Source: Patescibacteria group bacterium (lineage in GTDB: Bacteria > Patescibacteriota > Minisyncoccia > Phycocordibacterales > JACOZG01). Taken from it: a stretch of DNA of 37,257 nt. Below, one piece after another: positions 7,297-36,158 of the stretch. The stretch lies in NCBI GenBank assembly GCA_038065495.1, contig JBBTQW010000001.1:1-37257 (forward strand), written 5' to 3'. The notes beneath the pieces were generated by a model. The model did not search any database and was not told the origin of the DNA. It saw only the letters and a list, made by a program, of their open reading frames with translations. The position numbers were made by a program, and so were the translations under genes. The first letter of the stretch is position 1; each line of letters begins with the position of its first letter.

Positions 7297-7335
7297 AAAA
7301 AAAATTGGGCTTCGGTGTGATTAACCAAAGCCCAA
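7297..7335 (-). terminator. Intrinsic terminator of ORFan cassette A
   Basis: Minus strand TTGGGCTTTGGT-loop-ACCGAAGCCCAA followed by T8. Confidence 0.8.
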
Positions 7336-7361
7336 GTGGACACAAATCCAGATCGTGGGTG

Positions 7362-7748
7362 CTATTCGTCAGATCCAATCTTAGTGAAAAAGAGAATCTG
7401 ATCTCCTTTCCCCAATTTCGCTCCCCTGACTTGGGTAGTGGAAAATTCCAAATGATCGTCTCTACGCCAAACCGAGTACATGATCACCATGTTCCGCGAA
7501 AAAGAAACAATCCTTACACCTCGAGGAATCGCCTCGAGGAACTCAACAGACACCGATAGCAAACCCTTCCTGCCAAAAAATCTCGCGCCCGTCTCTTTGA
7601 AGATCTTCATCAGACACTTCCTAGCATCGAGACTATTGAGTTTACGCCGATTCACTAACCAAACCACACACTCGTCACCAACTTTCGGATCCGTAATAGA
7701 CCCAATACCTCTTGAGTTTCTCAAAATATCGGACAAGAAATCTGCCAT
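7362..7748 (-). CDS. Hypothetical protein (ORFan cassette A)
   Basis: 128-aa ORF preceded by GAAAGGAAAGG 2 nt before the ATG and followed by a terminator; no recognisable family. Confidence 0.65.
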   Translation of the reverse strand: MADFLSDILRNSRGIGSITDPKVGDECVVWLVNRRKLNSLDARKCLMKIFKETGARFFGRKGLLSVSVEFLEAIPRGVRIVSFSRNMVIMYSVWRRDDHLEFSTTQVRGAKLGKGDQILFFTKIGSDE

Positions 7749-7851
7749 TGCCTTTCCTTTCTACAAAGAGCTTTCCTGTTTAGTAGCTCAGAACTTTCCG
7801 AACCACCCCAATTTCACTGTCTATCAAAACACTTTTCCTGTTAAGGAGAAA

Positions 7852-8526
7852 CTAAGCCTTAGCCTCGTCAGTTTTTTCTTCACCAGCTGGAGCTTCGACA
7901 CCAGCTTCGTCCTCTTTCTTGCCTTTCTTCTCTACTTCAATACTCGAGAGATCAACTGGCGCGGCTTCCACCACTTCCTCCTTCGCCACCGAGATAGCCG
8001 CCACCACATCATCCGGATTATTGAGCACTTTAACTTCTTTATTCACTTTCAAATCTTTTACCAAAATCTGACTGTCTAAATTAATCAGTTTAGAAATATC
8101 CACTTCGATCTCATGCGGGATATCCATCGGCAACACCTCCACGTGCAGTTCGTGAATAACCTTCACGAGAATACCAGCCAAATCCTTAACCGCCGGCGAA
8201 ACGCCAGAGAAGTTGAGGGGCACGTTAATCTTGAGCACTTTCGTCTTATCCACAATATAGAAATCCGCGTGGAGCGGCTCGCCCGTCACCGGATGCCAAG
8301 CCACTTCTTGCACCAACACGTCTTTGTCACCAGATTCAGTTTTTACCGTTACAACAGTAGACTCACCAGCTTTGGCTAGTAGTTTCTTAAATTCGCCGGT
8401 CTGGACGAAGAGTGGCGTGGCATCTTTTTTGTCGCCATACACGATCACCGGCATTTTGCCGGCCTGCCGCTCACTCTTGAGCTCTTTGCCAAAAATAGAC
8501 CGCTTCTCGGCCGTAATACTTAACAT
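7852..8526 (-). CDS. rplY: 50S ribosomal protein L25 / general stress protein Ctc
   Basis: GKMPVIVYG, QEVAWHPVTGEPLHADFY, TL5 C-domain, acidic tail. Confidence 0.95.
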   Translation of the reverse strand: MLSITAEKRSIFGKELKSERQAGKMPVIVYGDKKDATPLFVQTGEFKKLLAKAGESTVVTVKTESGDKDVLVQEVAWHPVTGEPLHADFYIVDKTKVLKINVPLNFSGVSPAVKDLAGILVKVIHELHVEVLPMDIPHEIEVDISKLINLDSQILVKDLKVNKEVKVLNNPDDVVAAISVAKEEVVEAAPVDLSSIEVEKKGKKEDEAGVEAPAGEEKTDEAKA

Positions 8527-8575
8527 AAAACTGATTATAGCAATTTCGCCAAATTAAGCAAATCCAAGCCCCAAA

Positions 8576-9541
8576 CTAAGCCACCTCGCTCAGCGCTTTC
8601 TCACCCTTCAAAACTGCTAGAATATTCTTCGCGACTAGTTCGCTCATCGCAGCGCGCGCTTCTTCCGTCGCGCTGGCCGTGTGGGGCGTGATTACCACGT
8701 TCGGCAAATCAGCTAAACCAGCTGCGAGTTTTGGCTCGTTCTCAAAGACATCCAGACCAGCTCCCCTAATAGTTTTATTTTTCAGCGCTTCTACCAGAGC
8801 ACTTTCATCAATCACCGGACCGCGGGAAGTGTTGATGAGGATAGCGTGAGGTTTCATTAATTTTAGCCTGTCAGCATTGATCAAGTGTTTCGTGCTTGGC
8901 AAGAGTGGCACGTGTATTGAGACAAAATCTGACACTTTTAATAACTCATCCACATTCGCCATAAACTTAGCGCCAGTCATTTTTTCGAAATCACTATTAG
9001 CCGTGATATCGTAATAAACCACGCGCAAATCAAACGCTCTAGCGTACTGCGCCAGCCGCGAACCAATCCGACCCAAGCCCACAATCCCCAGCGTCTTGCC
9101 CGTCAGTTCTGTACCGAGCAAGAGTAGCGGCGCCCAGCCGTCGTATTTCCCTTCGCGCAAGAAAGTATCAGATTCCACCAAACGTTTAGAAACAGCCAGA
9201 AGTAAAGCAAAAGCGTGTTCGGCGACAGCGTTGGTGAGCACCCCGGGCGTATTAGTGATAATTATTCCTCTTTTCTTCGCTTCCGGCACATCTACATTGT
9301 CATAACCCACCGCGTAATTCGCAAAAATCTTCGTGCTAGGCGAAGCGTCAAAAATTTCGGCATCAATTTTGTCAGTCAATAGAGAAATCACAGCGTCATA
9401 ATTCTGATCTTTCAGACTCGCGACCAATTCTGCCTTAGTCAGCACGCCAGCCTTCTCACTCACCACCACTTTGTGATTATTATTTCTTAATAACTCAATC
9501 CCCGCTTCTGGAATCCGCCTCGTCACAAAAATTTTCGCCAT
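8576..9541 (-). CDS. D-2-hydroxyacid dehydrogenase (glyoxylate reductase / D-glycerate dehydrogenase family)
   Basis: AVGYDNVD, NTPGVLT, GIVGLGRIG, INTSRGPVIDE, LDVFENEP, TPHTASAT. Confidence 0.93.
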   Translation of the reverse strand: MAKIFVTRRIPEAGIELLRNNNHKVVVSEKAGVLTKAELVASLKDQNYDAVISLLTDKIDAEIFDASPSTKIFANYAVGYDNVDVPEAKKRGIIITNTPGVLTNAVAEHAFALLLAVSKRLVESDTFLREGKYDGWAPLLLLGTELTGKTLGIVGLGRIGSRLAQYARAFDLRVVYYDITANSDFEKMTGAKFMANVDELLKVSDFVSIHVPLLPSTKHLINADRLKLMKPHAILINTSRGPVIDESALVEALKNKTIRGAGLDVFENEPKLAAGLADLPNVVITPHTASATEEARAAMSELVAKNILAVLKGEKALSEVA

Positions 9542-9564
9542 GGTTTTTTAGGTTTTTATTTAGT

Positions 9565-9593
9565 TTGACAATCCTTATTATCAGGTATAGGGT
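9565..9593 (+). promoter_or_regulatory. Putative sigma70 promoter of ORFan cassette B
   Basis: TTGACA-N17-TAGGGT; perfect -35, weak -10 that keeps T-12, A-11 and T-7. Confidence 0.55.
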
Positions 9594-9640
9594 AAAAAGT
9601 GGCAAGTTTTACAGCTCTTTGAGAGCAGGAAAGGACAGAA

Positions 9641-9844
9641 ATGGTCACAAAAAAGATTACTTCCCGGTCTTCACGGATACGACCAGTTGATGAGATCGAA
9701 AGAATCATGAGAATGATGTACGACCCAACAGCATTCGCGCCACTTCCCAAACCACCTCACAATTTAGGTAACGGTCGACTCGACATCACCAGACTTGAGC
9801 AAGTTGTGGGGGAAAAAATCTCCTCCCGGAGCAAGCGTCGGTAG
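9641..9844 (+). CDS. Small hypothetical protein (ORFan cassette B)
   Basis: 67-aa ORF with AGGAAAGGA 5 nt before the ATG, its own promoter and a terminator; fills the intergenic gap. Confidence 0.6.
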   Translation: MVTKKITSRSSRIRPVDEIERIMRMMYDPTAFAPLPKPPHNLGNGRLDITRLEQVVGEKISSRSKRR

Positions 9845-9862
9845 ATGCCAACCACACGTACG

Positions 9863-9888
9863 ACCCGCCACCGTAGGCGGGTTTTTTT
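9863..9888 (+). terminator. Intrinsic terminator of cassette B
   Basis: ACCCGCC-accgta-GGCGGGT followed by a T tract. Confidence 0.85.
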
Positions 9889-9891
9889 ATT

Positions 9892-10770
9892 TTACAGGTT
9901 AGAAAACAACCTCAACTTTTTCTCTACCACTTTCTGCATTGCCGTCACGGCTGGTTTTAAGATTTTATATGGCGCAACTTCGTCGGGGTTTTCTTGGAGC
10001 GTTAGACGGAGCGCATCGCGATAAGCCACGCGCAATTCCGTATTGATATGCACGATTCGCACGCCGGCAGTGATGGCGTCGCGGAAATCCTGCTCGTTGT
10101 TACCCGAGCCGCCATGGAGCACGAGGGGCACGCCGGCCGCTTCACTGATTTCTCCCACTCGCGCAATGTTCAGTGCTGGATCCGCGCCACTTTTCAACAT
10201 CCCATGAATATTCCCCACCGCTGGCGCGAGCAAATCCACACCAGTTTCGGCCACAAATCGCTTCGCTTCGTCTGGTTTCGTCAGATCTTCCAATCCCAAC
10301 TTCACGCCTTCCGGAATCGCATCAAGAAGCTTACTCGAAGTGCCAATGTAGCCAAGTTCGCCTTCGACAATAATATCTCTATTCTGAACTTTAGCTTGCT
10401 CGCGAGCATAATCCACGCACTGTTTCGTGATTCTAATATTTTCTTCTAGATCCAGCTTACTGCCGTCGAAAATTACGGCGTCAAAGCCCGCATCTACTGC
10501 TTCTTTCACTCTATCAAAACTGTAAGTGTGATCGGCATTAAGAAATATCGGGTAAGAAAATTCTTCACGCAAACTTTTTACCAACGCCACCGCTTGCCGC
10601 ACACCCACGAAATCTCTTTCGCCTTCTGAGACGCCAATAATCACCGGCAGATTTAGCTCTTTCGCCGCATAGAAAATCGCCCACAAAGCTTCTAAATTAG
10701 AAATATTAAAATGGCCGATGGCGGTTTTATTAGCTTCAGCTTGTTTCAAGCACTCGCGTAAAGTTAGCAT
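9892..10770 (-). CDS. fba: Class II fructose-bisphosphate aldolase
   Basis: NADHT, GFDAVIFDGS, VEGELGYIG, AVGNIHG, LVLHGGSG, HINTEL. Confidence 0.95.
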   Translation of the reverse strand: MLTLRECLKQAEANKTAIGHFNISNLEALWAIFYAAKELNLPVIIGVSEGERDFVGVRQAVALVKSLREEFSYPIFLNADHTYSFDRVKEAVDAGFDAVIFDGSKLDLEENIRITKQCVDYAREQAKVQNRDIIVEGELGYIGTSSKLLDAIPEGVKLGLEDLTKPDEAKRFVAETGVDLLAPAVGNIHGMLKSGADPALNIARVGEISEAAGVPLVLHGGSGNNEQDFRDAITAGVRIVHINTELRVAYRDALRLTLQENPDEVAPYKILKPAVTAMQKVVEKKLRLFSNL

Positions 10771-10789
10771 TATGCTTATAATTATAGCA
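10771..10789. promoter_or_regulatory. Overlapping divergent -10 elements between fba and the kinase
   Basis: TATAAT on + (10777-10782), 6 nt before ATG 10789; TGCTATAAT on - (10781-10789), 10 nt before ATG 10770. Confidence 0.7.
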
Positions 10790-11811
10790 TGGAAAATAAC
10801 TCAAGTTCTAGCTTCGACTTCATCGCGCTTGGCGATATCACTACGGACGCTTTTATTAGATTAAAAGACGCCAAAACAAGTTGTGATCTAGATCACGAGA
10901 ACTGCCAGCTCTGCTTGCGCTTCGGTGACAAAGTGCCTTATGAGAGCGTCACGATTGTGCCGGCCGTCGGCAACAGTCCAAACGCGAGTGTGGCTGCAGC
11001 CCGGCTTGGCTTGAAGTCTGCGCTCGTGACTAATTTGGGAGATGACCGGAATGGCGATGAGGCGATAAAAGCGCTGGAGAAAAACGGCGTGAGTACAAAA
11101 TTAGTGAGAAGACATCAGAATCAGAAAACGAATTATCATTATGTCTTATGGTACGAAGATGATCGCACTATTTTAATTAAACACGAAGATTATAATTACG
11201 CTCTGCCAAGTTTAGATACAAAATGGCTGTACTTGAGCTCGCTCGGTGAGAATTCACTGGCGCTTCATGATACGCTCGCCGCTTATTTACAAAATAATCC
11301 GGAGATCAAACTCGCCTTCCAGCCCGGAACCTTCCAGATGAAACTGGGTGTCGAAAAGTTAAAAAAGATTTATGCGCGAACTGAAATATTTTTCTGCAAT
11401 GTGGAAGAAGCGAAGAGGATTACTGGCCAGAACCAAGCCAGTCCGGAGAGTTTGCTCGGTTATATTCGTCAGTTAGGACCAAAAATTGTCGTCATCACCG
11501 ACGGCAAGAACGGCGCTTATGCTTGCGCTCCCAGCAGTCACGACAGCAAGAGCGTCGAACACTGGTTCATGCCGCCTTATCCGGATCCGAAACCACCGCT
11601 CGAGCGCACCGGCGCCGGCGACAGCTTTGCCAGCACCATAGTTTCAGCACTAGCGCTAGGCAAAGATTTGCCCGAAGCTTTGCGCTGGGGGCCAATCAAC
11701 TCGATGTCCGTGGTCCAACAAATCGGCGCCCAAGCCGGCTTGCTCACGCGTCCGCAACTAGAGAAATTCCTCGCCGAAGCGCCACTGGATTACAAAGTGA
11801 AAAGGATTTAG
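10789..11811 (+). CDS. PfkB/ribokinase-family carbohydrate kinase
   Basis: GNSPNASVAAARLG..LGDD..G signature, CNVEEA, VITDGKNGA, ERTGAGDSF. Confidence 0.93.
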   Translation: MENNSSSSFDFIALGDITTDAFIRLKDAKTSCDLDHENCQLCLRFGDKVPYESVTIVPAVGNSPNASVAAARLGLKSALVTNLGDDRNGDEAIKALEKNGVSTKLVRRHQNQKTNYHYVLWYEDDRTILIKHEDYNYALPSLDTKWLYLSSLGENSLALHDTLAAYLQNNPEIKLAFQPGTFQMKLGVEKLKKIYARTEIFFCNVEEAKRITGQNQASPESLLGYIRQLGPKIVVITDGKNGAYACAPSSHDSKSVEHWFMPPYPDPKPPLERTGAGDSFASTIVSALALGKDLPEALRWGPINSMSVVQQIGAQAGLLTRPQLEKFLAEAPLDYKVKRI

Positions 11812-11822
11812 AAAACTACAAT

Positions 11823-12476
11823 TTATTTTAATCCGGATAGCTTGACTTTAAGTTCTTGCCTATAACCGTCTATTACTCTGTGAAAAAATGGATATTGGTC
11901 AATGGGTGCAAACGAGAATAATCCTGATCCCTTCGTTATGGCCCCAGGAATGCTATCTGCATTGAATAACCTTGCTCCTTCTATAGTTTTGGCATTATTA
12001 AGGGCTTCCAGAACGAATTCTGGCTTATAGTTATCGATTTGATGATCAAGTTGATCTAGTTCTGCAAGTTTAACATTAATTGCCCGTATTTTTTCAAGAT
12101 TGTTATTTAAAGCACCGCTATTGACTGTCAAAGATGAGAGTCTTACTTGAAGATCGGCAATTTCCTTTTTAAGTCTCGCGTTTTCTTCAACTAAAATATT
12201 TAGACGCGCCTGTAAAGCTGGATCCTGGACAGTTTTGGTGATTGTTTTCACTTCAGGCTCTTGTTTAAGAATTTCTTTTTCAACCTTGGGAGTATTATTA
12301 ATTTTACTTTCGAGTTCTTGGATTCTTTTTAAAAGATCGTTATCAATAGTCTTAGGCAAAGATGGAACTTCTGTCTTTCCCCAAGTCAATGGATTCCACC
12401 AAGCCGCCTGAACTTGTTGCAATAAAGTGGAAAAACAGATTAATGTCAAAACAAAAACCAAAATTAATCTTTTCAT
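11823..12476 (-). CDS. Secreted hypothetical protein with WWNPxTW motif and coiled coil
   Basis: Signal peptide VQA-AWWNPLTW, heptad-rich middle; visibly AT-richer than its neighbours. Confidence 0.8.
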   Translation of the reverse strand: MKRLILVFVLTLICFSTLLQQVQAAWWNPLTWGKTEVPSLPKTIDNDLLKRIQELESKINNTPKVEKEILKQEPEVKTITKTVQDPALQARLNILVEENARLKKEIADLQVRLSSLTVNSGALNNNLEKIRAINVKLAELDQLDHQIDNYKPEFVLEALNNAKTIEGARLFNADSIPGAITKGSGLFSFAPIDQYPFFHRVIDGYRQELKVKLSGLK

Positions 12477-12498
12477 AATTATTATAATATTATAACTT

Positions 12499-13497
12499 TT
12501 ACTTCTTCCGCGCTAGCACTCTCTGTACAGCGAGACGAATGTGCGAAACACCAAGACCGTAATGCTCCAGCAATTCTTGTGGTGTTCCCGATTGACCGAA
12601 CTGGTCATCCACACCCATTAGCTCCATCGGTACCGGATAATGCTCGGCGAGGAACTCGGCCACGGCGCTACCCATGCCACCGCGCTTCTGATGTTCTTCT
12701 ACAGTCACCACCGCGCCAGCTTGAGATGCCACTCTCAAAATTGTCTCTTCATCAAGTGGCTTGATCGTGTGGAGATTAATCACACTCACTTCCAAGCCTT
12801 GATTAGCTAGGTCGTTGGCGGCGATGAGCGCATTGTAGACCATCTGCCCGCAAGCGATAATCGCCACTTGCGGTTTGTCGGGCTGGCGGAGAATATTCGC
12901 TTTGCCGATTTCGAAGAATGATTCTTCTGTTGTTACCACGGGCGACTTTTCCCGCGCGAGGCGGAGATAAGCTGGTCCAGTCCAGCGGGCAATCTGCCAA
13001 GTCGCCTTCTTCGCTTCAATCGCGTCACAAGGCACAATCACGGCCAAGCGTGGGATGACGCGCGTGATGGCAATATCCTCGATCGCCTGATGCGTGCCAC
13101 CGTCTGGTCCGACAGAGACGCCAGCGTGCGAGCCGATGATCTTCACGTTTCGATCGTTATAACAAATCGTCGTCCGGATCTGCTCCCAATTCCGACCCGG
13201 ACTGAACATGGCATAGGAAGTGAGGAACGGAATCTTACCCATCGCGGCCATGCCGCTCGCTACGCTCGCGAGATTCTGCTCGGCCACGCCCACTTGGATA
13301 AAGCGCTCGGGGAACTGCTTCGCAAACAAGTGCATCTGCGTGGATTCTGTGAGATCAGCGCACAAGCCCACCACGTTCTGATCTTCTGCCCCAACGCCGA
13401 GCAAGCCCTCGCCGAAGCCTTTGCGAATTGGCACTTGCTCCACATCAAGTTTGAAAAGTTTCGGATTTAATTTTTGTGATTCGACAAGATTATTCAT
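12499..13497 (-). CDS. Transketolase, C-terminal section (ATG 13497; ORF track 13503)
   Basis: ADLTEST, GVAEQN, GPDGGTHQAIED, VTVEEHQ..GGMGSAV. Confidence 0.95.
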   Translation of the reverse strand: MNNLVESQKLNPKLFKLDVEQVPIRKGFGEGLLGVGAEDQNVVGLCADLTESTQMHLFAKQFPERFIQVGVAEQNLASVASGMAAMGKIPFLTSYAMFSPGRNWEQIRTTICYNDRNVKIIGSHAGVSVGPDGGTHQAIEDIAITRVIPRLAVIVPCDAIEAKKATWQIARWTGPAYLRLAREKSPVVTTEESFFEIGKANILRQPDKPQVAIIACGQMVYNALIAANDLANQGLEVSVINLHTIKPLDEETILRVASQAGAVVTVEEHQKRGGMGSAVAEFLAEHYPVPMELMGVDDQFGQSGTPQELLEHYGLGVSHIRLAVQRVLARKK

Positions 13498-14356
13498 GAT
13501 CACTCTTATTTATTCTACCACCTAAAGTTCTCAATTCTTTCAGTGCTAGCTCCCCTTCGGCTTTGTTTGGCGGTTTGCCATGCCACTGGTATTGACGCTC
13601 GAATTCCGGCACGCCTTTGCTCGGAATCGTATGTGCAATGATCACGCTCGGCTGGCTGAAGATCGCCTTGGCTTGATTGACCGCTTCGTCTATTGCCTCG
13701 AAATTGTGACCATCAATCTCTTGCACATGCCAGTTGAAGGCGCGCCACTTATCGGCCAGTGGCTCGAGTGGCAAGACATCTTCCGTAAAGCCGTCTATTT
13801 GAATATTATTGCGGTCAACGATCGCAATCAAGTTATGCAGTTTCTCGCGACCGGCCAGCATGATTGCCTCCCAGTTCTGGCCTTCGTCGAGCTCGCCATC
13901 ACCCAATAAACAATAGAAAAATTTATTAGACGCTTTGCCGGCGTCTATCCTCTCGGCCAGAGCCATGCCAACAGCTTGTGATAAGCCCGAACCCAGTGGC
14001 CCGGAGCTAGTTTCGGTAAATGGCAGGAACTCGCGATGCGGATGACCCTGCAGGCGCGAGCCGAAGTGCCGCAAAGTTTTCAACTCTTCAACCGGGAAGT
14101 AACCAGCATGCGCGAGTGTGGCGTAATAAACCGGACAAATGTGGCCGTTTGAGAGAATTAATCTATCGCGCTCTGGCCAGTCAGGCTTCGCTGGATCATG
14201 CTTGAGCAAGTGAAAATATAAAGCCGCGAAGATATCCGCCATGCCGAGTGGTCCAGCCGTGTGACCCGAGCCAGCCGAAAGTAACGCATCAATAATGGAG
14301 ATTCTGATGTCATTGGCCTTGCGTTCGAGCAGTTTAATTTTGTCGTCGTAGAGCAT
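13490..14356 (-). CDS. Transketolase, N-terminal (TPP-binding) section
   Basis: GSGHTAG, RDRLILSNGH, LQGHP, GDGELDEGQNWEA..N TPP motif. Confidence 0.95.
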   Translation of the reverse strand: MLYDDKIKLLERKANDIRISIIDALLSAGSGHTAGPLGMADIFAALYFHLLKHDPAKPDWPERDRLILSNGHICPVYYATLAHAGYFPVEELKTLRHFGSRLQGHPHREFLPFTETSSGPLGSGLSQAVGMALAERIDAGKASNKFFYCLLGDGELDEGQNWEAIMLAGREKLHNLIAIVDRNNIQIDGFTEDVLPLEPLADKWRAFNWHVQEIDGHNFEAIDEAVNQAKAIFSQPSVIIAHTIPSKGVPEFERQYQWHGKPPNKAEGELALKELRTLGGRINKSDHE

Positions 14357-14993
14357 TAAAAGTTTGTATCGCTTTAGAAATATCTTTACTTTTCCAAATC
14401 GCCGAGCCGATTACTAATCTATCTGCGCCAGCTTTAATTAATTTTTCCGCGTTCTTGAGAGTGACACCACCGTCCACACTAATTTTAACATCTGGATACT
14501 CTTTACGCAAAAAACTTATCCTCTCATAAACTTTCTTATCCAACGGCTCGCCGTGATGACCAATCGTGGCAATGCTCATGAGCTGGATATTTTTTATTTT
14601 TCCCATCAACGGCGCTAGTTTCGCCAAATCAGTTTGTAATAAAACAGCTACAGCCAATCTCTTCTCTAACTGATTTAGTTTATCTAATTTATCAATAATT
14701 TCTGTCAGTTTATTAGTCGCTTCTAGGTGCACAATCACGCGGTCGCAAGTGCCGAGCCAATCATCCAACACATTTTCTGGCTCTTCCAGCATCAAGTGTG
14801 CCTCTAGTTTGAGCTTTCCATCTAGTTGCTCCAGCTCTGCGGGACTCTGCCAACTATATTCGGGCACGAAGAGGCCATCCATCACATCAATCTGCGCCCA
14901 CTCTACCGAGCCGTCTAGTTTCTCTAACTGATTAATTTTCTTACTGACTTCCAGAAAATTTTCGCCAATTATGGCCGGCACAATTTCTGTCAT
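14334..14993 (-). CDS. rpe: Ribulose-phosphate 3-epimerase family protein (start at MTEIVPA)
   Basis: IVPAI, QIDVMDGLFVP, EAHLM, SVDGGV, GADRLVIGSAI; lies between rpiB and transketolase. Confidence 0.88.
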   Translation of the reverse strand: MTEIVPAIIGENFLEVSKKINQLEKLDGSVEWAQIDVMDGLFVPEYSWQSPAELEQLDGKLKLEAHLMLEEPENVLDDWLGTCDRVIVHLEATNKLTEIIDKLDKLNQLEKRLAVAVLLQTDLAKLAPLMGKIKNIQLMSIATIGHHGEPLDKKVYERISFLRKEYPDVKISVDGGVTLKNAEKLIKAGADRLVIGSAIWKSKDISKAIQTFNALRRQN

Positions 14994-15018
14994 GTTACTT
15001 GTTATTTTAACTATTTTT

Positions 15019-15486
15019 TTAAAACTCGTTAGTCCCCGGCACTGGCGTATCAATCTTCGGCAAGCGCCTGATATGCCGTTCTTCGCCCGTGAATTCGGTA
15101 TCCAGCCACAGTTTAATCACCTCTTTCGCGCGTTCTAAGTTCACAAATCTGGCGCCAATAGACAAGATATTAGCATTATTGTGTTCGCGAGATAATCTGA
15201 CAATCTGCTCGTCACCGCCATAGTAGACCGCCGCGCGCACGTTCCGGAAGCGATTGGCCGTGATCGCCTCGCCTTGCCCGGAACCGCCAAAGATTATGCC
15301 GCGATCTTCTTCCGGATTGGCCGAGACTTGCTTGGCCACAATCTGCACAAATTCCGGATAATCATCTTCCGCCTCCAGGACAAAAGCTCCTTCGTCCGAG
15401 ACCAAATAACCTAGCGTGTGCAGCCAGACTTTGATCTCCTCTTTGAGAGCGAAGCCGGCGTGATCAGTGGCAAGATGGATTCTCAT
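15019..15486 (-). CDS. rpiB: Ribose-5-phosphate isomerase B (RpiB/LacA/LacB family)
   Basis: ATDHAGFALKE, DDYP, GGSGQGEAITANR, SREHNNANILSIGAR, RHIRR; TGGTATAAT 7 nt before ATG 15486. Confidence 0.93.
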   Translation of the reverse strand: MRIHLATDHAGFALKEEIKVWLHTLGYLVSDEGAFVLEAEDDYPEFVQIVAKQVSANPEEDRGIIFGGSGQGEAITANRFRNVRAAVYYGGDEQIVRLSREHNNANILSIGARFVNLERAKEVIKLWLDTEFTGEERHIRRLPKIDTPVPGTNEF

Positions 15487-15534
15487 GTCCAAAATTATAC
15501 CACAGACGCTATTTTATTCTGTGTTTAACCAGAC

Positions 15535-15564
15535 TTGACAAAATGGGACTACTTGTGCTAAAAT
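15535..15564 (+). promoter_or_regulatory. Sigma70 promoter of ORFan cassette C
   Basis: TTGACA-N18-TAAAAT with extended TG. Confidence 0.7.
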
Positions 15565-15640
15565 AGACGAGACTAGTAAAGATTTGGCGTGTGGCCAATA
15601 TCTGTTGAAAAATAAGGCTTTTTTAGGAAAGGAGCCAAAA

Positions 15641-16015
15641 ATGGTCCAATATCATGTGACTTCTGTAATGCCAGATCGAGACACAAAATTCTGGAAAAAG
15701 TACTTTGCCAAGATTGATGTGCCAGACAAAGGACCCAGATTGTTGTCCAAAAGATTGAACGGTGAGATGACTTTCTCGGGAATGCAGGCCAAGTTTGGGC
15801 CATCCACCGTAAGCGGATCCGATGTGCTTCGTGCCATTAACGGTGGTGACCTAAGTAAGGAACGAGCTATCCACTTTTTCTTTTTGGACGAAGGAGCGGT
15901 GGCTAATGTTTTCTTCGAAGACAATGATTGGGCAATTCTGATGGATTCAGTAGAGCGGCCCGATATCTGGGTGGATCATCACTGTGTCTGGTCTACGGGA
16001 TTCAGAGAAACGTGA
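15641..16015 (+). CDS. Hypothetical protein (ORFan cassette C), start at MVQYHV
   Basis: AGGAAAGGAG 6 nt before ATG 15641; own promoter and terminator; 124 aa. Confidence 0.7.
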   Translation: MVQYHVTSVMPDRDTKFWKKYFAKIDVPDKGPRLLSKRLNGEMTFSGMQAKFGPSTVSGSDVLRAINGGDLSKERAIHFFFLDEGAVANVFFEDNDWAILMDSVERPDIWVDHHCVWSTGFRET

Positions 16016-16048
16016 TTCCTTTCAAATGGGAAAACAGCTCGCCACTCT

Positions 16049-16077
16049 CGCGCTCAGTTACACTGGGCGCGTTTTTT
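16049..16077 (+). terminator. Intrinsic terminator of cassette C
   Basis: CGCGCTCAGT-tac-ACTGGGCGCG followed by T6. Confidence 0.8.
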
Positions 16078-16083
16078 ATTTTT

Positions 16084-16809
16084 CTAAACACTCCCCGCTT
16101 TCATCGCCTCTATAACCAAAAAAGACGGAATTTCTTGTTGGAAATCAATGTAATCTTTTTCTCGTTTTTCTTCTACGGGTGGGATTGTTTTAATCTCTCG
16201 CAAGGTTGTCACCACAAATCTGCTAGATTTTAGTTTAGCGAAATAATAGTCTAACGGCCGATGATACATTATTATTCCCTTGTCGCCGTATAGACCATTA
16301 GGCATCGTCGCGATTTGTCCGTATTTTTTCACTTTGCGATAGTAACCAGTTTCGTCTACTTGCGTTGTGCTCAGATCACGCATTGGATGAGGAATGGCAA
16401 AAATCAATTTGCCTCTCGGTTTCAACAAGCGCGAAAATTCGGCCATACACGGGTCTAAGTCTTCGATCAAATGCAGCGCCATGGTGGAAACAATCCAATC
16501 TTGAGAATAATCTTCAATACTCTTTAGAGCTGTAATATCGCCAACCAAAAATCTAATCGCCGGATCACTGTTTTCTCTCTTAGCTATCTCGATTAATTTT
16601 TCCGAAACATCGACAGCGATCACAGACGCACCCAACTTTGCCAAGATTCGCGAAAAATAACCATTACCGCAAGCAAAATCAACAACCTCACAATTTTTTA
16701 TATCGCCTAATAATTCCAGAATGACCGGATTAACAAAATTATTGTGATAGTAATCCCCACTATCACCTACGCGCTCATGATATTCCTCCGCGACAGAATC
16801 CCAGTTCAT
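16084..16809 (-). CDS. Class I SAM-dependent methyltransferase
   Basis: VVDFACGNG motif I, AVDVS, RLLKPRGKLIF; ATGA overlap with the gap stop. Confidence 0.9.
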   Translation of the reverse strand: MNWDSVAEEYHERVGDSGDYYHNNFVNPVILELLGDIKNCEVVDFACGNGYFSRILAKLGASVIAVDVSEKLIEIAKRENSDPAIRFLVGDITALKSIEDYSQDWIVSTMALHLIEDLDPCMAEFSRLLKPRGKLIFAIPHPMRDLSTTQVDETGYYRKVKKYGQIATMPNGLYGDKGIIMYHRPLDYYFAKLKSSRFVVTTLREIKTIPPVEEKREKDYIDFQQEIPSFLVIEAMKAGSV

Positions 16810-17834
16810 GCGTTGCCAGCCTTCACCACATGCTCAAGCAGAGAATTAGTGTACCCCATCTCATTATCGTACCAAGCAAGGATTTTTACCAAGTTACCAC
16901 CGACGACTTTCGTCATCGTGAGGTCAGCCAGCGAGGCAAACGGGCAACCCACAATATCCGTAGAAACTAGTTGTTCGTCCGTGGTGGAGAAAACTTTCTG
17001 CCAGCGGGGCAACTTAGCCGCTTCGCGCAAGATATTATTTACTTCTTCTACTGTCGTAGCGCGCTTACTAATAAAAGTGATGTCGGCAATCGAGCCAGCG
17101 ATCACCGGCACGCGAAGCGCAATGCCATCGAAAAGATTTTTCAAAGCCGGCACCGCCTCAGTGACCGCAATCGCCGCGCCAGTGGTGGAAGGAATGATAT
17201 TCTGCGCCGCCGCTCGTCCGCGCCGATAATCGCCCTTCTTATCCGGCGCATCCACCAGCGACTGCGTAGCCGTGTAAGCGTGGACGGTGTTTAAGATTGC
17301 TTTTTCTACACCAATGCTTTCCAACATGATTTGAATAACCGGCGAAGCGGAATTAGTCGTGCACGAAGCGTTGCTGGAAATCTGGCAAGTCGCGAGCTTA
17401 TCATCGTTAATGCCCATCAGCACGGTGGCACCGACCACGCCCGGCACTGGTTCGTCTTTCATCGGCGCACTCACCACCACTTTCTGCGCGCCGGCTTCTA
17501 GATGCGCCTTCGCCTTCTGATAAGTTTCGAAAAATCCAGTTGATTCCACCACCACCTTCACGTTCAAATCGCGCCACGGTAGTTTGCCTGGCTCTTTCTC
17601 TTGCAGAAATTTAATTCTTTGATTATTTACAACCAGTTCGCCATTTCCCGTTTTAATATCTAAACCAGAACGCCCATAAGCGCTATCGTAACGCAATAAA
17701 TAAGCGAGATTCTCGAGATCGCCTAAATCATTCACGGCCACAATTTCCAATTCTTCCGGCCGTTTTACCGCCAACTTGAGAAAAGCGCGACCGATCCGAC
17801 CAAGACCATTAATCGCTACCCGGACTTTTGCCAT
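16806..17834 (-). CDS. gap: Glyceraldehyde-3-phosphate dehydrogenase (type I)
   Basis: INGLGRIGR, VESTG, SNASCTTN, NIIPSTTGAA, RVP, WYDNE. Confidence 0.97.
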   Translation of the reverse strand: MAKVRVAINGLGRIGRAFLKLAVKRPEELEIVAVNDLGDLENLAYLLRYDSAYGRSGLDIKTGNGELVVNNQRIKFLQEKEPGKLPWRDLNVKVVVESTGFFETYQKAKAHLEAGAQKVVVSAPMKDEPVPGVVGATVLMGINDDKLATCQISSNASCTTNSASPVIQIMLESIGVEKAILNTVHAYTATQSLVDAPDKKGDYRRGRAAAQNIIPSTTGAAIAVTEAVPALKNLFDGIALRVPVIAGSIADITFISKRATTVEEVNNILREAAKLPRWQKVFSTTDEQLVSTDIVGCPFASLADLTMTKVVGGNLVKILAWYDNEMGYTNSLLEHVVKAGNA

Positions 17835-17855
17835 GATTACTAAAAAATAATTAAC

Positions 17856-20607: not shown

Positions 20608-20624
20608 GTGTTTATTTTTATTTT

Positions 20625-29641: not shown

Positions 29642-29670
29642 TTTAATCTGGCTCAAAACTGTTTAAGTAT

Positions 29671-32600
29671 TTATTTAAATAAACCACCAAAGGCTCCCCA
29701 AACATTCGCCAACCAATTGGACGGGCTGATGAAAGCATGCGGCGCATTACCGCAGACTAATCTTCCTTGCACATCAGTCCCGACTGGAACTTTATTCGGC
29801 CGACAAACACATTGATTGGTGGCCGAATTTGGTTGGGTGTTATTGGAATTACCACAACTCCACTGGCAGTTGTTATGACTATCAAGCTGACGATAAGGAG
29901 CGGGGCAGGAATTAACGATTGGCGGAACGACAACTGGTGGAACGACCGGTGGCGGTGTGGTAGCTGGAGGTGGAACAGTTGGAGACGGAGTAGTGGGATT
30001 AGTGGCGGGAGGATTAGTAGAAGCTGGAGGAGTAGCAGGAGTAGGCACTGTAGAATTATTGCTTGAAGCTGGGACAGTTGGACTTGCCGGAGTCGTTGGC
30101 CCACCACCAGTGTTACCACCAGAGGGGCCAGAATTATTGGCAGGACTAACTACGTTCTTGAAGCTAAATTCCAAGCGATTAGTAAAGTGGAGTAAATAAT
30201 TATTTTCGCTACCAAAAGATGTCGCTAAATAATACGCTCGATGAGGCATATTTTGCGCCTGAGCATAGAGTGTGCCAGACATGATTGTGGGATTAGCTAA
30301 TGGCGACTTGATAGAACTACAGCCCAAGTAAACCTTCTCCACTTGTTGCTTCCATTGATTGGGATCATTTGAGCTAGAGAGATAGAAGCAAGCGTAAGGT
30401 GGATATAAGTTAGCAGAAACATTACGCAGTGTTAGCTGGTAAGGCAAAGTAATCTGACCACTCTTATCAGCCTCGACTACCTTGGCTACCTTGAGCGACA
30501 CGACTAAAGATGCAGAATCAGGTAAGTTTACAGATTTTATTGTCAGTCTAGCATCACCACGCGGACCAAGATCTCGCCAACCGTAACCTGGAGAATATGA
30601 CCTCTCCACACAAGTAACCTTCACATCCGCCTTCTCTCCCGCAGACAGGAGCCAGGGGGCGTAAAAAGTTCCAGAGCTAGCTTGATCTTGTAATGTCCAC
30701 GGGCGATTAGAAGAGTCGTTCCAAGTAACAGAACAAGAATTAGCATATTTTGCCGCCCAGTTTATCTGTAAACTTTCGTTCGGCCCAACTTCCACGGAAC
30801 CAGCTTTGCCTTTAGCTGTAATCTCCACCACTGGTACCGGCCGAGAGAGGTAGAAAAAGTTACTGTCCGTTATCACACCACCAGATCTGATTTCTATTTT
30901 ATAAGTCCCCAGCGCGGCATCAATGGGCAATAAAACACTCTCCAACCCGTCATTCGGTCCAGAGGCTAATAGTGTCCCAGAAATTCCTTGCTGTTCCGAC
31001 TTAAAGAGATAAATGGAGACAGAATCAGTAGCTCGACCACCAGACCAGCGCACCGTCTGCCTTGATCCAGCTGGCCAACTCTCGTAACCAGCGGGCGAAG
31101 TAATAGATAGCTCACTAGTCGCTAAGACATTTAACTGTATGGCCTGACCAGCCTCGCCAGAACTATTTCTACAAGTGAGACCAAGATCATAAGCACCAGG
31201 TGTGGTGAAAGTGAAAGGCTTCTGCCCGGCTGGCGGCAGATCAGCATAAGCCTGTGACCAAGCTCCGATAGCCTTGCAACCTGTTGCTTGATTGGCCGCT
31301 GACCAAGTGACATTGATTGTCTCGCCAGAAGTCAAATTAGCGCCGTTCTGTAATTCTTGATTATCTGCAGAACGTCTGGCGTGCAGAATGATATAAGGCA
31401 ATGCCCCTCTCCCGACTTGCACAAGAGAGTTCCCATTTGCCGAAGGTGAAATCTTTATCACGACATCTGATTTGGGAAGATAAATGTTCTGATTAATTGG
31501 CAAAAAGGCATCCTGGACCGAAGGAGTTTGGGGATGGCCGTCAAATAACCATGATCGTCCAGGTTCTTCAGCTTCGGTTGTCAATAACACGTTAGAAAGA
31601 TTTTGGCTGTCACCAATATTTTCCAGCAAACGACTTTCTAAGAAGTAGGCTCCCGATCCAAAACCAGAAGAATAGGGAATTTTGATGGCATTTGTCGTAG
31701 ACTTCCTCTCTATGGGTGACAGAGTGATCAGAACTGCGCCAGAAATACTATCTAACCTTTTAATACTCGCGCCAAACCAGCCCAAATAATCCTTGCCCAT
31801 AGCGTTAAAATCAGCCAGATTATAACCAGTGCCCATCACATCAAAGACGTTGCCATATTCTGCACCCCTATTACAAATTCCGCTAACCGTGGTCGGTTGA
31901 CCGTTCTCCGAACACACCGCGTTGCTAGCGTGATGCAAACCAAGATTGTGACCAAACTCATGTGCGAAAACATAAGAAACTGGGCTGATTATCGAGCTTC
32001 TGGCCGGGGTAAAGGATAATCCAACACTTCCTCTGCCAGCCCACTCACAGGTAGGATTCCCCGGAAAGACAACTGACACCATATCGTAATTAGAAGGGAC
32101 AAAACCATCAGCCCTTGCCCCATCTTGAGCAAGGTCATGCGAAGTTAAATACTGAGAATAATCACAGCCGGTAGGACTGTTTTGGTCAAGAGTGTACCAA
32201 CCGAAAATATCACCGTCCACGCGCAGACTCCCCACGAGAGAAAGCTGTCCATAGGAACTATCTTGATAGTATTTGTTGACACTGGGGAAACTTTGACTGC
32301 CCGTAAAAACCCGTTGTCTGACTTCTTCTACGGTAACTGACTGAGTTTGATTATCAAGAAAATTAACCAAAATTATTGCCACTTTTTTGGCACCGGTAAC
32401 AGACAGGCGAGTATCTGGTTCCAACTGAGTAAATTCTCGACTCTGGTTACTACCATTGAGAAGCAGGTTATTCGCTAGCTTAAGACCAGTGGTAGAAATT
32501 TTCCTACCTGATTGAGTACGTGGAGTTTGATTATCAAGAAAATGTAATCTTGTTTCCTTTCCATCAGTTGTGCGGATACTATATTCGGTTTGATAATCCT

Positions 32601-33036
32601 TAAAGTTAACGCCATCAATATAAGAGACTATTAAGTTGCCAGTTAGACTCGCGTCGTCTTCGACATATTCTCTGGCTTCTACTGGCAAACGCGCTCGATC
32701 TTGTTTGGAAATGCGATTCTCGAGCACAGCCTTCGGATTTTTCTCTAACAACTTGAGCATCGTCTTCTGACGATCCTTGGCTGTTTCTACTAGATCTAGC
32801 TTAAGCTTTACTTTCTCGGAAACAGAAGCCTTCTCATGGTCAACCAAGACCCGCAAGACTTTGGCGTTCTTTTCTTTTACCAGAGCTACTTCGGTCGCGA
32901 CATTATTTGTAGCAACTTGCCCCACCGCCGCCAGATTTAGATTCTTAGTCTGTGTGGTTAAAACAGGATTATTTAGAACCCCAAACAAACCAACTAGTAG
33001 CGCCAATACAGACAAGCCGGCAAATTGTTTAATCAT
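29671..33036 (-). CDS. Large secreted metzincin metallopeptidase (M11 gametolysin/M6-like) with Ig-like, Pro-rich and Cys-rich regions
   Basis: KVAIILVNF, FAHEFGHNLGLHHA (HExxHxxGxxH), EYGNVFDVMG Met-turn. Confidence 0.88.
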   Translation of the reverse strand: MIKQFAGLSVLALLVGLFGVLNNPVLTTQTKNLNLAAVGQVATNNVATEVALVKEKNAKVLRVLVDHEKASVSEKVKLKLDLVETAKDRQKTMLKLLEKNPKAVLENRISKQDRARLPVEAREYVEDDASLTGNLIVSYIDGVNFKDYQTEYSIRTTDGKETRLHFLDNQTPRTQSGRKISTTGLKLANNLLLNGSNQSREFTQLEPDTRLSVTGAKKVAIILVNFLDNQTQSVTVEEVRQRVFTGSQSFPSVNKYYQDSSYGQLSLVGSLRVDGDIFGWYTLDQNSPTGCDYSQYLTSHDLAQDGARADGFVPSNYDMVSVVFPGNPTCEWAGRGSVGLSFTPARSSIISPVSYVFAHEFGHNLGLHHASNAVCSENGQPTTVSGICNRGAEYGNVFDVMGTGYNLADFNAMGKDYLGWFGASIKRLDSISGAVLITLSPIERKSTTNAIKIPYSSGFGSGAYFLESRLLENIGDSQNLSNVLLTTEAEEPGRSWLFDGHPQTPSVQDAFLPINQNIYLPKSDVVIKISPSANGNSLVQVGRGALPYIILHARRSADNQELQNGANLTSGETINVTWSAANQATGCKAIGAWSQAYADLPPAGQKPFTFTTPGAYDLGLTCRNSSGEAGQAIQLNVLATSELSITSPAGYESWPAGSRQTVRWSGGRATDSVSIYLFKSEQQGISGTLLASGPNDGLESVLLPIDAALGTYKIEIRSGGVITDSNFFYLSRPVPVVEITAKGKAGSVEVGPNESLQINWAAKYANSCSVTWNDSSNRPWTLQDQASSGTFYAPWLLSAGEKADVKVTCVERSYSPGYGWRDLGPRGDARLTIKSVNLPDSASLVVSLKVAKVVEADKSGQITLPYQLTLRNVSANLYPPYACFYLSSSNDPNQWKQQVEKVYLGCSSIKSPLANPTIMSGTLYAQAQNMPHRAYYLATSFGSENNYLLHFTNRLEFSFKNVVSPANNSGPSGGNTGGGPTTPASPTVPASSNNSTVPTPATPPASTNPPATNPTTPSPTVPPPATTPPPVVPPVVVPPIVNSCPAPYRQLDSHNNCQWSCGNSNNTQPNSATNQCVCRPNKVPVGTDVQGRLVCGNAPHAFISPSNWLANVWGAFGGLFK

Positions 33037-33051
33037 GCTTTAATCTTAACA

Positions 33052-33088
33052 AAAATTCGCCTCCGGTTTATCCCCAGAGGCGAATTTT
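33052..33088 (-). terminator. Hairpin terminator after the 33109-33723 gene, possibly bidirectional
   Basis: AAAATTCGCCTC-N13-GAGGCGAATTTT perfect inverted repeat with A/T tails. Confidence 0.75.
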
Positions 33089-33108
33089 CGCAAACTAAAC
33101 ACTATATA

Positions 33109-33723
33109 TTATCTCATGAAGCGGAAGGTGGAGATAATCTTCCTGAACCAGTCAATGTGGTAGTCTAAATTATCTTGAGGCAAATGAGCTTTCCAAACAA
33201 ACTTATCATTTTTGTGGTTAAAAGATGCTTCAACTAACTGACGATCGCTTGCCTCTTCTCCTTCTGTTTCCATATCTGGGCTAACCCATTTTTCTTCGCT
33301 TACGATGAGAGAAGTATTTTTACTGACAGTCAGTTGCCAACGCAAATATTTGGCCGTATAGAAAAGACCATCAAAGGTTGTGTTCACATAGAGAGTTGCG
33401 GAAGGATTATTTATATTTCCACCCGATATTGTAATTCCATAGACAGACGGTTGAGATGGTGAGTTCTCCGTGATCTTGAAATTTTCCGGGTATTTGAAAC
33501 TAAACCCATATTTCTCATTTTTGTAAGTTTTCCAATCTTTTGTTTCATCTGTTTCATCTACAACTGTCGCTGGTCTGGTGACAAAAGAATTATCTGGCGT
33601 GTTGAGAACTGGCGCAGTGGCGCTGGGTTGATAAGAATAATCTGGTTGGGCTTGATTGTAGAAAGTGTAACCAGCGAAACCGAGAACAATGAGAACTAAA
33701 ATTGTGATTACGATGTTTTTCAT
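33109..33723 (-). CDS. Membrane-anchored PsbP-like protein
   Basis: N-terminal TM helix; TKDWKTYKNEKYGFSFKYP and terminal FRKIISTFRF patterns. Confidence 0.75.
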   Translation of the reverse strand: MKNIVITILVLIVLGFAGYTFYNQAQPDYSYQPSATAPVLNTPDNSFVTRPATVVDETDETKDWKTYKNEKYGFSFKYPENFKITENSPSQPSVYGITISGGNINNPSATLYVNTTFDGLFYTAKYLRWQLTVSKNTSLIVSEEKWVSPDMETEGEEASDRQLVEASFNHKNDKFVWKAHLPQDNLDYHIDWFRKIISTFRFMR

Positions 33724-33746
33724 CTGTTTATCTTAACACGAGTAGT

Positions 33747-35408: not shown

Positions 35409-35411
35409 ATT

Positions 35412-35717
35412 TTATTCTAAAATAGCTAAGATATTACTTTCGCTAATAATAAAATATTCTTTGCCATCCACTTTCACTTCGTCCGGACCATATTTCGAGA
35501 ATAATATTTTCTGACCTTTTTTTACCGACATTGGGATTAATTTCCCGTCATCAGTTCTTTTCCCTTCGCCCACCGCAATTATTTTCCCCTGCTCGCTTTT
35601 TTCCTTACTAACAGTGTCCGGAATAATAATTCCTGATTTCGTTTTCTCGCTATTCTCGAGATCAATCGCTTCCACCAGCACGCGATCGCCTAATGGTTTG
35701 ATGCTTATTTTACTCAT
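35412..35717 (-). CDS. groS: Co-chaperonin GroES
   Basis: IKPLGDRVLV, TKSGIIIPD, AVGEG; 3 bp upstream of groL. Confidence 0.98.
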   Translation of the reverse strand: MSKISIKPLGDRVLVEAIDLENSEKTKSGIIIPDTVSKEKSEQGKIIAVGEGKRTDDGKLIPMSVKKGQKILFSKYGPDEVKVDGKEYFIISESNILAILE

Positions 35718-35754
35718 GTTTTTATTAAAAAATTAAGCGACTAATAACGCGAGC

Positions 35755-35782
35755 ATTATACTCGGAAAAACTCTTTTTGCAA
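35755..35782 (-). promoter_or_regulatory. Sigma70 promoter of groES-groEL
   Basis: TTGCAA-N16-TATAAT, 37 nt before the ATG; no CIRCE seen. Confidence 0.65.
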
Positions 35783-35798
35783 GCACTTTTTAAGCAAG

Positions 35799-35827
35799 AA
35801 AAAAGCCGCGTCCCGAGAGGGCGCGGC
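35799..35827 (-). terminator. Intrinsic terminator of ORFan cassette D
   Basis: Minus strand GCCGCGCCC-tctcg-GGACGCGGC followed by T6. Confidence 0.8.
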
Positions 35828-35832
35828 GGATG

Positions 35833-36063
35833 TCAGTGGGTCTCCAGCATGGGGAGGTATTTGCGAAGTCTTTCTGGAGACACAAGATCCCAAGGCCGGT
35901 AGAAACTATCCTCGCCATGGTATTCACAGGTCAGATAGAATTCACCATTAGAACCAGACCAAAGCTGGTACCCACTACCACCCATTTCCGTTCCGAGCCT
36001 AAAGGTTCCCAAACTTGTGACTTCGCATGACGGCTTCCCCGGCTCCTGCTTAAGATAAGCCAT
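35833..36063 (-). CDS. Small hypothetical protein (ORFan cassette D), start at MAYLKQ
   Basis: AAAAGGAG 7 nt before ATG 36063; own promoter and terminator; 76 aa. Confidence 0.7.
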   Translation of the reverse strand: MAYLKQEPGKPSCEVTSLGTFRLGTEMGGSGYQLWSGSNGEFYLTCEYHGEDSFYRPWDLVSPERLRKYLPMLETH

Positions 36064-36095
36064 AGCAAATCTCCTTTTAAAAAACAGCCAAATAA

Positions 36096-36158
36096 AGTAT
36101 ACAAAAAAACCCACTTTCTGTCAATCTATTTGCGCTAGTTTCCCCTTTCTGCTACACT
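36096..36158. promoter_or_regulatory. Back-to-back promoters for cassette D (-) and secG (+)
   Basis: Minus: TTGACA-N17-TATACT (36124-36096). Plus: TTGCGC-N17-TACACT (36130-36158) with extended TG. Confidence 0.7.

Follow-up and report, generated by a model that had tools for sequence, protein, structure and literature searches.

What are the small solitary genes lodged between core genes at the start of contig C1 of this Patescibacteria genome, and where do their expression signals come from? The stretch analysed (37,257 nucleotides, the first 37 kb of the contig, called the window below) holds four such genes, each with its own putative signals, which we call cassettes A to D. The initial annotation had described them as promoter, leader, Shine-Dalgarno (SD) tract, short open reading frame (ORF) and terminator hairpin, but had missed the key context: the 16S rRNA of this host has no anti-SD sequence. 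Our preferred reading, to which we give a probability of about 0.5, is that the cassettes are recently gained foreign units, comparable to phage morons, with signals that stem from an SD-using gene pool. The genome (618,632 bp, 3 contigs, 97.6% complete) is that of a tiny groundwater bacterium of the candidate phyla radiation (CPR), Paceibacteria-like. It was compared, as G000, with two congeneric sister species, G001 and G002, both taken whole; nucleotide identity is about 70% and gene order is conserved. Genes were called crudely (hexamer score, greedy), and conservation was scored by tblastn against the sisters, genes common to both being termed core. The caller missed ORF B, which fell below its threshold, as well as secG, and it set the starts of A and C wrongly.

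Direct reading of the sequence confirmed all four cassettes in place, and their presence is thus directly supported. Each unit would consist of a sigma-70-type promoter (except probably A), a leader of 45-75 nt, an SD-type tract, an ORF of 67-128 amino acids (aa) and an intrinsic terminator. Cassette D, on the reverse strand, has the promoter TTGACA-N17-TATACT (36096-36124; 11/12 in the promoter scan), the tract AAGGAG 7 nt 5' of the ATG (36071-36076) and a 76-aa ORFan (35833-36063). It ends in a bulged GC hairpin with T6 (35799-35829), seen by direct reading and in our own scan and missed by the terminator tool because of the bulge. Cassette C, on the forward strand, starts with TTGACA-N18-TAAAAT with a TG (15535-15564; again 11/12 in the scan), followed by the purine tract AGGAAAGGAG 6 nt 5' of the ATG (15625-15634), a 124-aa ORF (15641-16015) and a terminator with a 10-bp stem and T6 (16049-16077, terminator scan). 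Cassette B, also forward, was read directly as TTGACA-N17-TAGGGT (9565-9593); the scan did not list this promoter because its -10 box matches at 3/6 positions only. The purine tract AGGAAAGGA (9627-9635) stands 5 nt 5' of the ATG of a basic 67-aa ORF (9641-9844), and the terminator scan placed the end of the unit at 9862-9890. Cassette A, on the reverse strand, has a leader ending in the pyrimidine tract GCTCTTTG and then the purine tract AGAAAGGAAAGG 2-3 nt 5' of the ATG (7751-7771), a 128-aa ORFan (7362-7748) and a terminator with a 12-bp stem and T8 (7297-7335, terminator scan).

The TTGACA promoters that had been claimed for B, C and D are consensus matches. The weak promoter proposed for A from direct reading, TTAACA-N17-GACAGT (7816-7844, reverse strand), is doubtful: the scan listed none for this cassette, and a contig of run X9 (record 26), from a related strain, lacks window positions 7772-7833, which hold the -10 box and most of the spacer, and retains ORF A at about 96.7% identity. 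The -35 box (7839-7844) lies just outside the missing stretch. Since the promoter is unlisted, and mostly missing in a strain that keeps the ORF, cassette A is more likely transcribed by read-through from rplY than from a promoter of its own, as judged from these sequences. All four terminator hairpins were recovered, and those of C, A and B are the three best terminator-like hairpins between positions 5000 and 17000. The purine tracts were found as described: A, B and C have AGGAAAGG at 3-8 nt from the ATG, and D has AAGGAG. Scored as agreeing with the canonical SD (AAGGAGG) over 5 nt or more, 3-12 nt 5' of the start, they read AAGGA in A and B and AAGGAG in C and D. Genome-wide, AGGAAAGG occurs nine times, and 4/9 occurrences precede an ATG in a promoter-like context. 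The start ATGG is no shared mark of the cassettes, G at +4 having a frequency of 0.24-0.29 in all gene classes, and the four units have three different -10 boxes.

These tracts stand in a host whose 16S rRNA has no matching sequence. The 3' tail of the 16S rRNA (L002:5199-5231, on contig C1 near 164.2 kb, reverse strand) reads GGAAUUAUUUAAGG where the consensus is GGAUCACCUCCUUU, so that CCUCC is lacking; a like tail (GGAWUWAUUYMA) was read in every relative of the family and order whose 3' end was recovered (29/29; L163-L191). The absence of the anti-SD is thus directly supported. No canonical 16S tail was found elsewhere in the three genomes. Two further candidates were rejected: a second rRNA tail or other carrier of CACCUCCUU, whose matches in the three genomes were only coding or antisense-SD, and a displaced anti-SD located some 30 nt beyond the 16S tail (GAUCUUUCC), complementary to GGAAAG but not conserved in G002. 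With no anti-SD in the 16S rRNA, the 'SD' of the cassettes cannot act as in textbook initiation; it seems to betray either a foreign origin or some other mechanism.

The genes of the host itself appear to be built differently. Upstream of 528 confident genes (-13 to -1) the frequency of G was 0.12-0.16 and that of A 0.40-0.53, and by their upstream sequences core genes are leaderless or have A/U-rich leaders. In the window, TATAAT stands 1-8 nt before the ATG of operon-first genes at 8526 (rplY), 10789 (pfkB), 15492 (rpiB), 19213 and 21008, which suggests leaderless mRNAs. Bacteroidetes likewise initiate translation independently of an SD, with A-rich leaders and A at -3, and keep the anti-SD in their 16S rRNA. 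Upstream of the core genes of our host G is likewise scarce and A abundant, and about half of these genes have A at -3, but the present order has lost the anti-SD, and many of its operon-first genes look leaderless. The protein uL1 (PF00687) was not found in the genome either. A subgroup of Parcubacteria lacking both anti-SD and uL1 has been described (Tsurumaki et al. 2022, RNA 28:1041, PMC9297842), and our host, likewise without CCUCC and with no uL1 found, belongs to it. The passages of that paper at hand report losses in rRNA and proteins; a contrast in SD use between core and accessory genes is not among them. The literature searched gave us no account of accessory genes with an SD in Parcubacteria that lack the anti-SD.

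A separate observation concerned AAATAA(T)-like motifs, which peak at the SD position (-14 to -6) of core genes in the three genomes, most strongly in operon-internal ones, and are complementary to AUUAUUU in the 16S tail. A tail match of at least 6 nt was found for 19.7% of genes, compared with 11.2 +/- 4.3% for AT-only shuffles of the tail (7/500 shuffles reached 19.7%). This peak could represent an AU-rich replacement pairing, or reflect A-richness, TATAAT boxes or upstream stop codons.

Are A to D isolated cases? The initial annotation had noted core genes without SD and had proposed a distinct class of single-gene modules, and both statements held genome-wide. By the score given above, an SD preceded 3/399 core genes in G000 (0.8%), 7/387 in G001 (1.8%) and 8/404 in G002 (2.0%), as against 28/163 (17.2%), 25/122 (20.5%) and 21/127 (16.5%) species-specific genes. 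For genes common to one sister the values were 6.7%, 5.8% and 8.6%, and the background over all ATGs was 2.2%, 3.8% and 3.4%. The spacing peaked at 5-8 nt, and Fisher odds ratios ranged from 10 to 27. Consensus promoters accompanied 24-43% of class genes vs 8-12% of core genes, and terminators 25-52% vs 4-6%. Complete units of promoter, SD and terminator were found in species-specific genes only: 11/164 in G000, 5/122 in G001 and 7/127 in G002, compared with 0/399, 0/387 and 0/404 core genes (about 1,190 in all). For this count the starts of A, B, C and the paralogue of C were set by hand; otherwise the G000 count is 8. The enrichment of the class is directly supported, and by their signals A to D are four members of it, with about 30-40 such genes per genome in the genus.

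Members of the class differ from other genes in further respects. The host-type A at -3 had a frequency of 0.30 in SD-bearing genes vs 0.48, and the median hexamer coding score per codon was 0.28 for the class vs 0.51 for core genes. The GC content of SD-bearing species-specific genes exceeded that of the other species-specific genes in two genomes (0.507 vs 0.457, p ~1e-5; 0.500 vs 0.451, p ~1e-4), and the difference was not significant in G002. A Pfam match was obtained for 5/37 SD-bearing species-specific proteins scanned, one of them an IS110-family transposase (G000:C2:22879-24324, forward strand) with AAAGGAG 8 nt before its ATG. A pyrimidine tract, as had been seen in the cassette leaders, is enriched in class leaders in the form of TCTTT (24/74 vs 115/1184 core leaders, three genomes). 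Between -70 and -13 of SD-bearing species-specific genes, TCTTT, CTTTGA and GTTCTT were enriched 3-7 fold. A hairpin between the SD and this tract was not supported as the real element: pairing was 0.447 vs 0.408 in shuffled leaders (p = 0.16), a test that supersedes an uncontrolled count of 53/74 minimum free energy structures with pairing between the SD and an upstream tract.

One sibling unit connects the class to phages. It encodes a 98-aa lipoprotein-like protein (C1:50225-50521) and has TTGACA-N16-TATAAT, GAAGGAG and a terminator. Homologues were present in 784 phage records and in 2/400 other Patescibacteria genomes sampled, none of them in its own order or class. Both Patescibacteria homologues carry an SD, and the one of these two genomes in which the 16S end was found has the canonical GGATCACCTCCTT tail, that is an anti-SD.

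The flanks of the cassettes were then compared with the syntenic sites in the relatives, and these proved empty or occupied by other cargo in sister species and other genera. The flanking genes are rplY, a 2-hydroxyacid dehydrogenase gene, fba, pfkB, rpiB, a SAM methyltransferase gene, groES and secG. That each cassette sits alone between housekeeping genes needs correction for C, which adjoins a second species-specific gene, a methyltransferase (window 16084-16809). At site A, 691 bp in G000 correspond to 149 bp in G002 and 183 bp in G001, and at site D 406 bp correspond to 61 and 102 bp. At site B, 345 bp in G000 are matched by about 0 bp in G001 and by a gene for a 241-aa methyltransferase on the opposite strand in G002. 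Cassette C and its methyltransferase together make up 1.3 kb, where G001 has 103 bp and G002 a contig break. All four cassettes are therefore indels by this comparison, their core flanks lying 0-183 bp apart in at least one sister (in both for A and D, in G001 alone for B and C), and this status is directly supported. We also considered that a methyltransferase had moved between sites B and C. This was rejected, as the enzyme encoded at site B in G002 and the one at window 16084-16809 are not orthologues; the best G002 match of the latter is 33% identical and lies elsewhere in that genome.

For site D the direction of the change could be read as well. Between the Cpn10 and SecG domain matches lay a gap of 121-198 nt in 7/10 family genomes keeping the divergent gene pair, compared with 488 nt in G000 and 387, 424 and 1103 nt in three other genomes. 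The seven genomes with the short gap span 5 genera, including outgroups, so that gain polarity at this site is directly supported. The insertion sits between the groES and secG promoters, and neither a terminal repeat nor a target duplication was visible there. In G008 (L230, G008:C16:11410-11870) the same site holds a unit of its own, with TTGACA-N17-TATAAA, AAAGGAGG 6 nt before the ATG, a 55-aa ORF and an 11-bp terminator. The site is also filled in G013 (L231), by a 224-aa ORF, and in G017 (L229), by about 250 nt with no clear gene; these three, from other genera, represent independent fillings.

Strain-level data, from contigs of independent runs (X3, X6 and X9, with strains at 87-100% identity), added to this picture. 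At sites B and C, X9 and X3 contigs depart from the window: 385 nt replace 15514-16827 in an X9 contig other than that with ORF A, and an X3 contig follows the window only up to 15504. For cassette A, placement was confirmed by a contig of run X3, with 0 differences over 6948-7779 and 100% identity of ORF A. In the X9 contig with ORF A, rplY and the dehydrogenase gene are 1.1 kb further apart. The X9 contigs were about 95.6-96.7% identical to the window over 5738-8526 (a transglycosylase-like gene, cassette A and rplY) and about 86-87% identical over 8586-17900 (the following genes, on the same or neighbouring contigs). This mosaic suggests a recent recombinational exchange of the 5738-8526 segment between lineages.

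As to the encoded proteins, the claim that they belong to no recognisable family agreed with our searches, none of the four having a Pfam or PHROG match, and a comparison with each other found them mutually dissimilar. ORF C has a paralogue at G000:C2:8962-9345, identical at 65/123 aligned residues (53%), in a unit of like architecture (TTGACT-N17-TAGGGT, GGGAG, terminator); the purine tract of C is partly conserved in its leader. Between the two, pN was 0.29 and pS 0.71 (dN/dS about 0.16). As pN is far below pS, purifying selection, and with it constraint on C, is directly supported. The search of 5.8 billion proteins returned ORF C itself only, and its ESM Atlas model (pLDDT 0.32) gave no usable lead. 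ORF B has a single homologue, P0004, of equal length (67 aa) and 79% identical. For ORF D the search of 5.8 billion proteins likewise gave a self-match only, and its standing as a gene is supported by its signals alone. ORF A matched only itself among 1.84 billion representatives, nothing by tblastn in 60 relatives including the two congeners, and nothing in a PDB sequence search (E = 0.27). Its ESM Atlas model reached a pTM of 0.76, and a single-sequence AlphaFold2 model, made without an alignment, was poor (pLDDT 52). Structural likeness to DUF5701 (PF18959), with a TM score of 0.61-0.68 between predicted models, is a weak lead only; with 0 Pfam families matched, ORF A has no sequence match to the DUF5701 model.

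How would such units have come to their sites? In our preferred reading each cassette would have been gained as a 0.33-0.6-kb insertion into a short intergenic space between core genes, and its SD tract would be a signal inherited from an SD-using gene pool, be it phage, plasmid or other bacteria. Because the host order has no anti-SD and its own genes are leaderless or A/U-rich, inheritance is the simplest account of the tract. In favour of this reading we count the indels, the gain polarity at site D, the differing cargo at these sites, the missing anti-SD, the SD gradient replicated in three genomes, the scarcity of A at -3 and (in two genomes) the raised GC content of SD-bearing genes, the sibling unit with phage homologues and the SD before the IS110-family transposase. 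The units may have been integrated through illegitimate recombination, following DNA uptake for instance, and the surviving units may be only those that, with their own start and stop signals, spared the neighbouring operons. Phage morons, a concept from lambdoid phages, carry promoter, gene and terminator as one autonomous unit, placed between two genes that are direct neighbours in related phages. The cassettes resemble them in their own promoter, single small ORF of unknown function and own terminator (consensus matches, with the promoter of A unsupported), in flanks that are adjacent in relatives, in cargo that varies at one and the same site and in signals unlike those of the neighbours. 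They differ in lying in the core chromosome, between rplY, fba, rpiB, gap, groES and secG, rather than in a phage or prophage, and in carrying a translation signal with which the host ribosome cannot pair.

Several observations weigh against a foreign origin. A PHROG match was found for just 3/38 class proteins, none of them A to D. No donor or homologue of A, C and D was found outside their own lineage in the protein libraries, nor for C in metagenome contigs. JGI metagenome contigs and IMG/VR held no relatives of the C family with the tool-chosen peptide patterns, and the JGI contigs none of the B family with such patterns. The nearest structural or feature neighbours of ORF A are hypothetical proteins of Minisyncoccota, the same phylum, and the GC content of A to D (0.45-0.51) is near the genome mean. 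With no donor found for A, C and D and a single homologue for B, we infer the foreign origin of A to D from their membership in the class. Expression of the four, too, is a prediction from consensus signals. Furthermore, the promoter of B recurs: TTGAC[AT]-N17-TAGGGT is found at nine sites in G000 (C1:9565; C2:8865, 139226, 194672, 307872, 310652, 330628, 336954 and 391335), with 0.02 expected, and at none in either sister. These units keep the -35 and -10 hexamers and their spacing, have unrelated spacers and are private to G000, which looks like functional constraint within G000 or a single source, and not many donors. Finally, the purine tract and the preceding T tract are kept in the pair of C and its paralogue and in the pair C2:330628/C2:310652, although synonymous sites are saturated; if these duplications arose inside the lineage, the tract is under selection here.

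A further reading, which we find doubtful, is that the SD tracts of accessory genes are kept because they function, read by something other than the 16S tail. The tracts would then form a separate expression channel for accessory genes, coupled in G000 to TTGACA-N17-TAGGGT, and their conservation between saturated paralogues would reflect selection inside the lineage. The main rival of our preferred reading, somewhat plausible to us, is a native accessory regulon. Its purine tract would be a functional cis element needing no anti-SD, recognised perhaps by an RNA-binding protein or by the ribosome at some other place, and in G000 a private promoter type, TTGACA-N17-TAGG(G/C)T, would co-regulate many units. 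The initial annotation had offered a regulon or an insertion mechanism. We found no insertion machinery, and the nine TAGGGT promoters, which include those of cassette B and the C paralogue, speak for the regulon. All nine edge species-specific segments, with a purine tract and start codon 40-85 nt downstream, and TGn often precedes the -10 box. A third sigma-70-family gene, of the extracytoplasmic function (ECF) type (r2, r4_2; G000:C1:91482-92066, that is L196:11482-12066, forward strand), is present in G000 and in neither sister. The conserved leader and tract of the diverged paralogues, the TCTTT enrichment and a 33%-identical gene pair of G001 and G002 that keeps CCCTTTTT-N2-GGAGG point the same way. 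However, the tract is the canonical SD in both sequence and spacing, as an SD-using origin predicts, and TAGGGT is absent from A, C and D. No ECF sigma factor is known to read promoters of the TTGACA/TAnnnT type. A CsrA/RsmA regulon acting on GGA-motif leaders was rejected, as CsrA (PF02599) was not found in the 97.6%-complete genome, with positive controls detected in the 3 genomes. The pairing of tract and leader was no stronger than in shuffled leaders, and among 766 orthologue pairs with comparable starts the SD was present in both members in just 2, in one member in 15 and in none in 749.

A gain, whatever its mechanism, is also what separates our preferred reading from the idea that the cassettes are ancestral genes lost differentially in the sisters during genome reduction. 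The lineage is indeed genome-reduced, G000 is about 80 kb larger than the sister genomes, and with two sisters only the polarity at A, B and C is formally ambiguous. We nevertheless consider this unlikely, given the short state of site D across five genera and the 122-164 species-specific genes that each of the three genomes has of its own; moreover, neither the 60 relatives nor the large protein libraries yielded a homologue of A, C or D, and a canonical SD would hardly persist for long in an anti-SD-less order. Placement by a dedicated cassette-insertion system, integron-like or based on a new recombinase, might explain why the same intergenic sites are refilled with differing cargo and why species-specific segments start so near the -35 box (a few tens of nt at most). 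Integron cassettes are, like ours, single small ORFs, often ORFans, and strain-variable, but they are promoterless, end in attC and form arrays beside intI, whereas the present units are dispersed and have their own promoter and terminator. As the initial annotation had stated, no integrase, attC site or terminal repeats were visible: Pfam gave no integrase domain in the 25 non-cassette window ORFs that were scanned, and blastn of the cassettes against the three genomes gave no common repeats or attC-like ends. Unit orientation varies, and with no visible target duplication at site D such a system seems very unlikely. That the ORFs are spurious and their common features chance is hardly conceivable. 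Low hexamer scores, ORF B below the caller's threshold and the poor models of A (AlphaFold) and C (ESM) would fit this, but the dN/dS of C and its paralogue, the equal-length homologue of B, the ESM model of A and class statistics far from chance do not.

Some observations stand beside these questions. Segments of 250 bp or more without protein-level conservation in the sisters number 150 in G000 and cover 23% of the genome, and species-specific genes make up about one quarter of the gene content. Within the window, 11823-12476, 20206-21008, 22268-23695, 23929-24306 and 29671-33036 are unconserved in the sisters and have no SD. They encode a 217-aa ORFan, a 133-aa ORF without Pfam match, a DUF1428 protein, and Schlafen AlbA_2/HATPase_c_4, 23S-rRNA-IVS (bAvd-like) and 1121-aa metallopeptidase-like proteins. 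A 204-aa ORF (33109-33723, reverse strand) has a 211-nt stretch 82% identical to part of a 416-aa ORF elsewhere in the genome (G000:C2:293418-293618) and a 74-nt stretch 87% identical to G001:C7:21833-21906; this sharing may point to a conserved module, N-terminal or leader, within a variable family of proteins. One accessory islet holds the ECF-type sigma gene together with genes for an RrnaAD-like methyltransferase and an SPFH/Band 7 protein. Besides TAGGGT, the boxes TAGGCT (6 copies) and TAAGCT (4 copies) are over-represented. An Rfam search downstream of a conserved TAAGCT promoter (C2:303487) returned nothing, and one of the window returned two tRNAs and nothing else.

In conclusion, what appears to be new here, by the literature searched, is the presence of canonical SDs on accessory but not on core genes of anti-SD-less genomes; the losses in rRNA and proteins were already known, as the passages at hand of PMC9297842 report. 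In this genus one can watch, as in a natural experiment, the fate of SD-led genes where the ribosome is unable to pair with an SD. If the tracts are functional, translation initiation would have a purine-tract reader independent of the 16S tail. If they are relics, they would provide a marker of recent gene gain in CPR bacteria that can be read from sequence only, and tiny, highly syntenic genomes would frequently be acquiring self-contained units of one gene each at the boundaries of operons.

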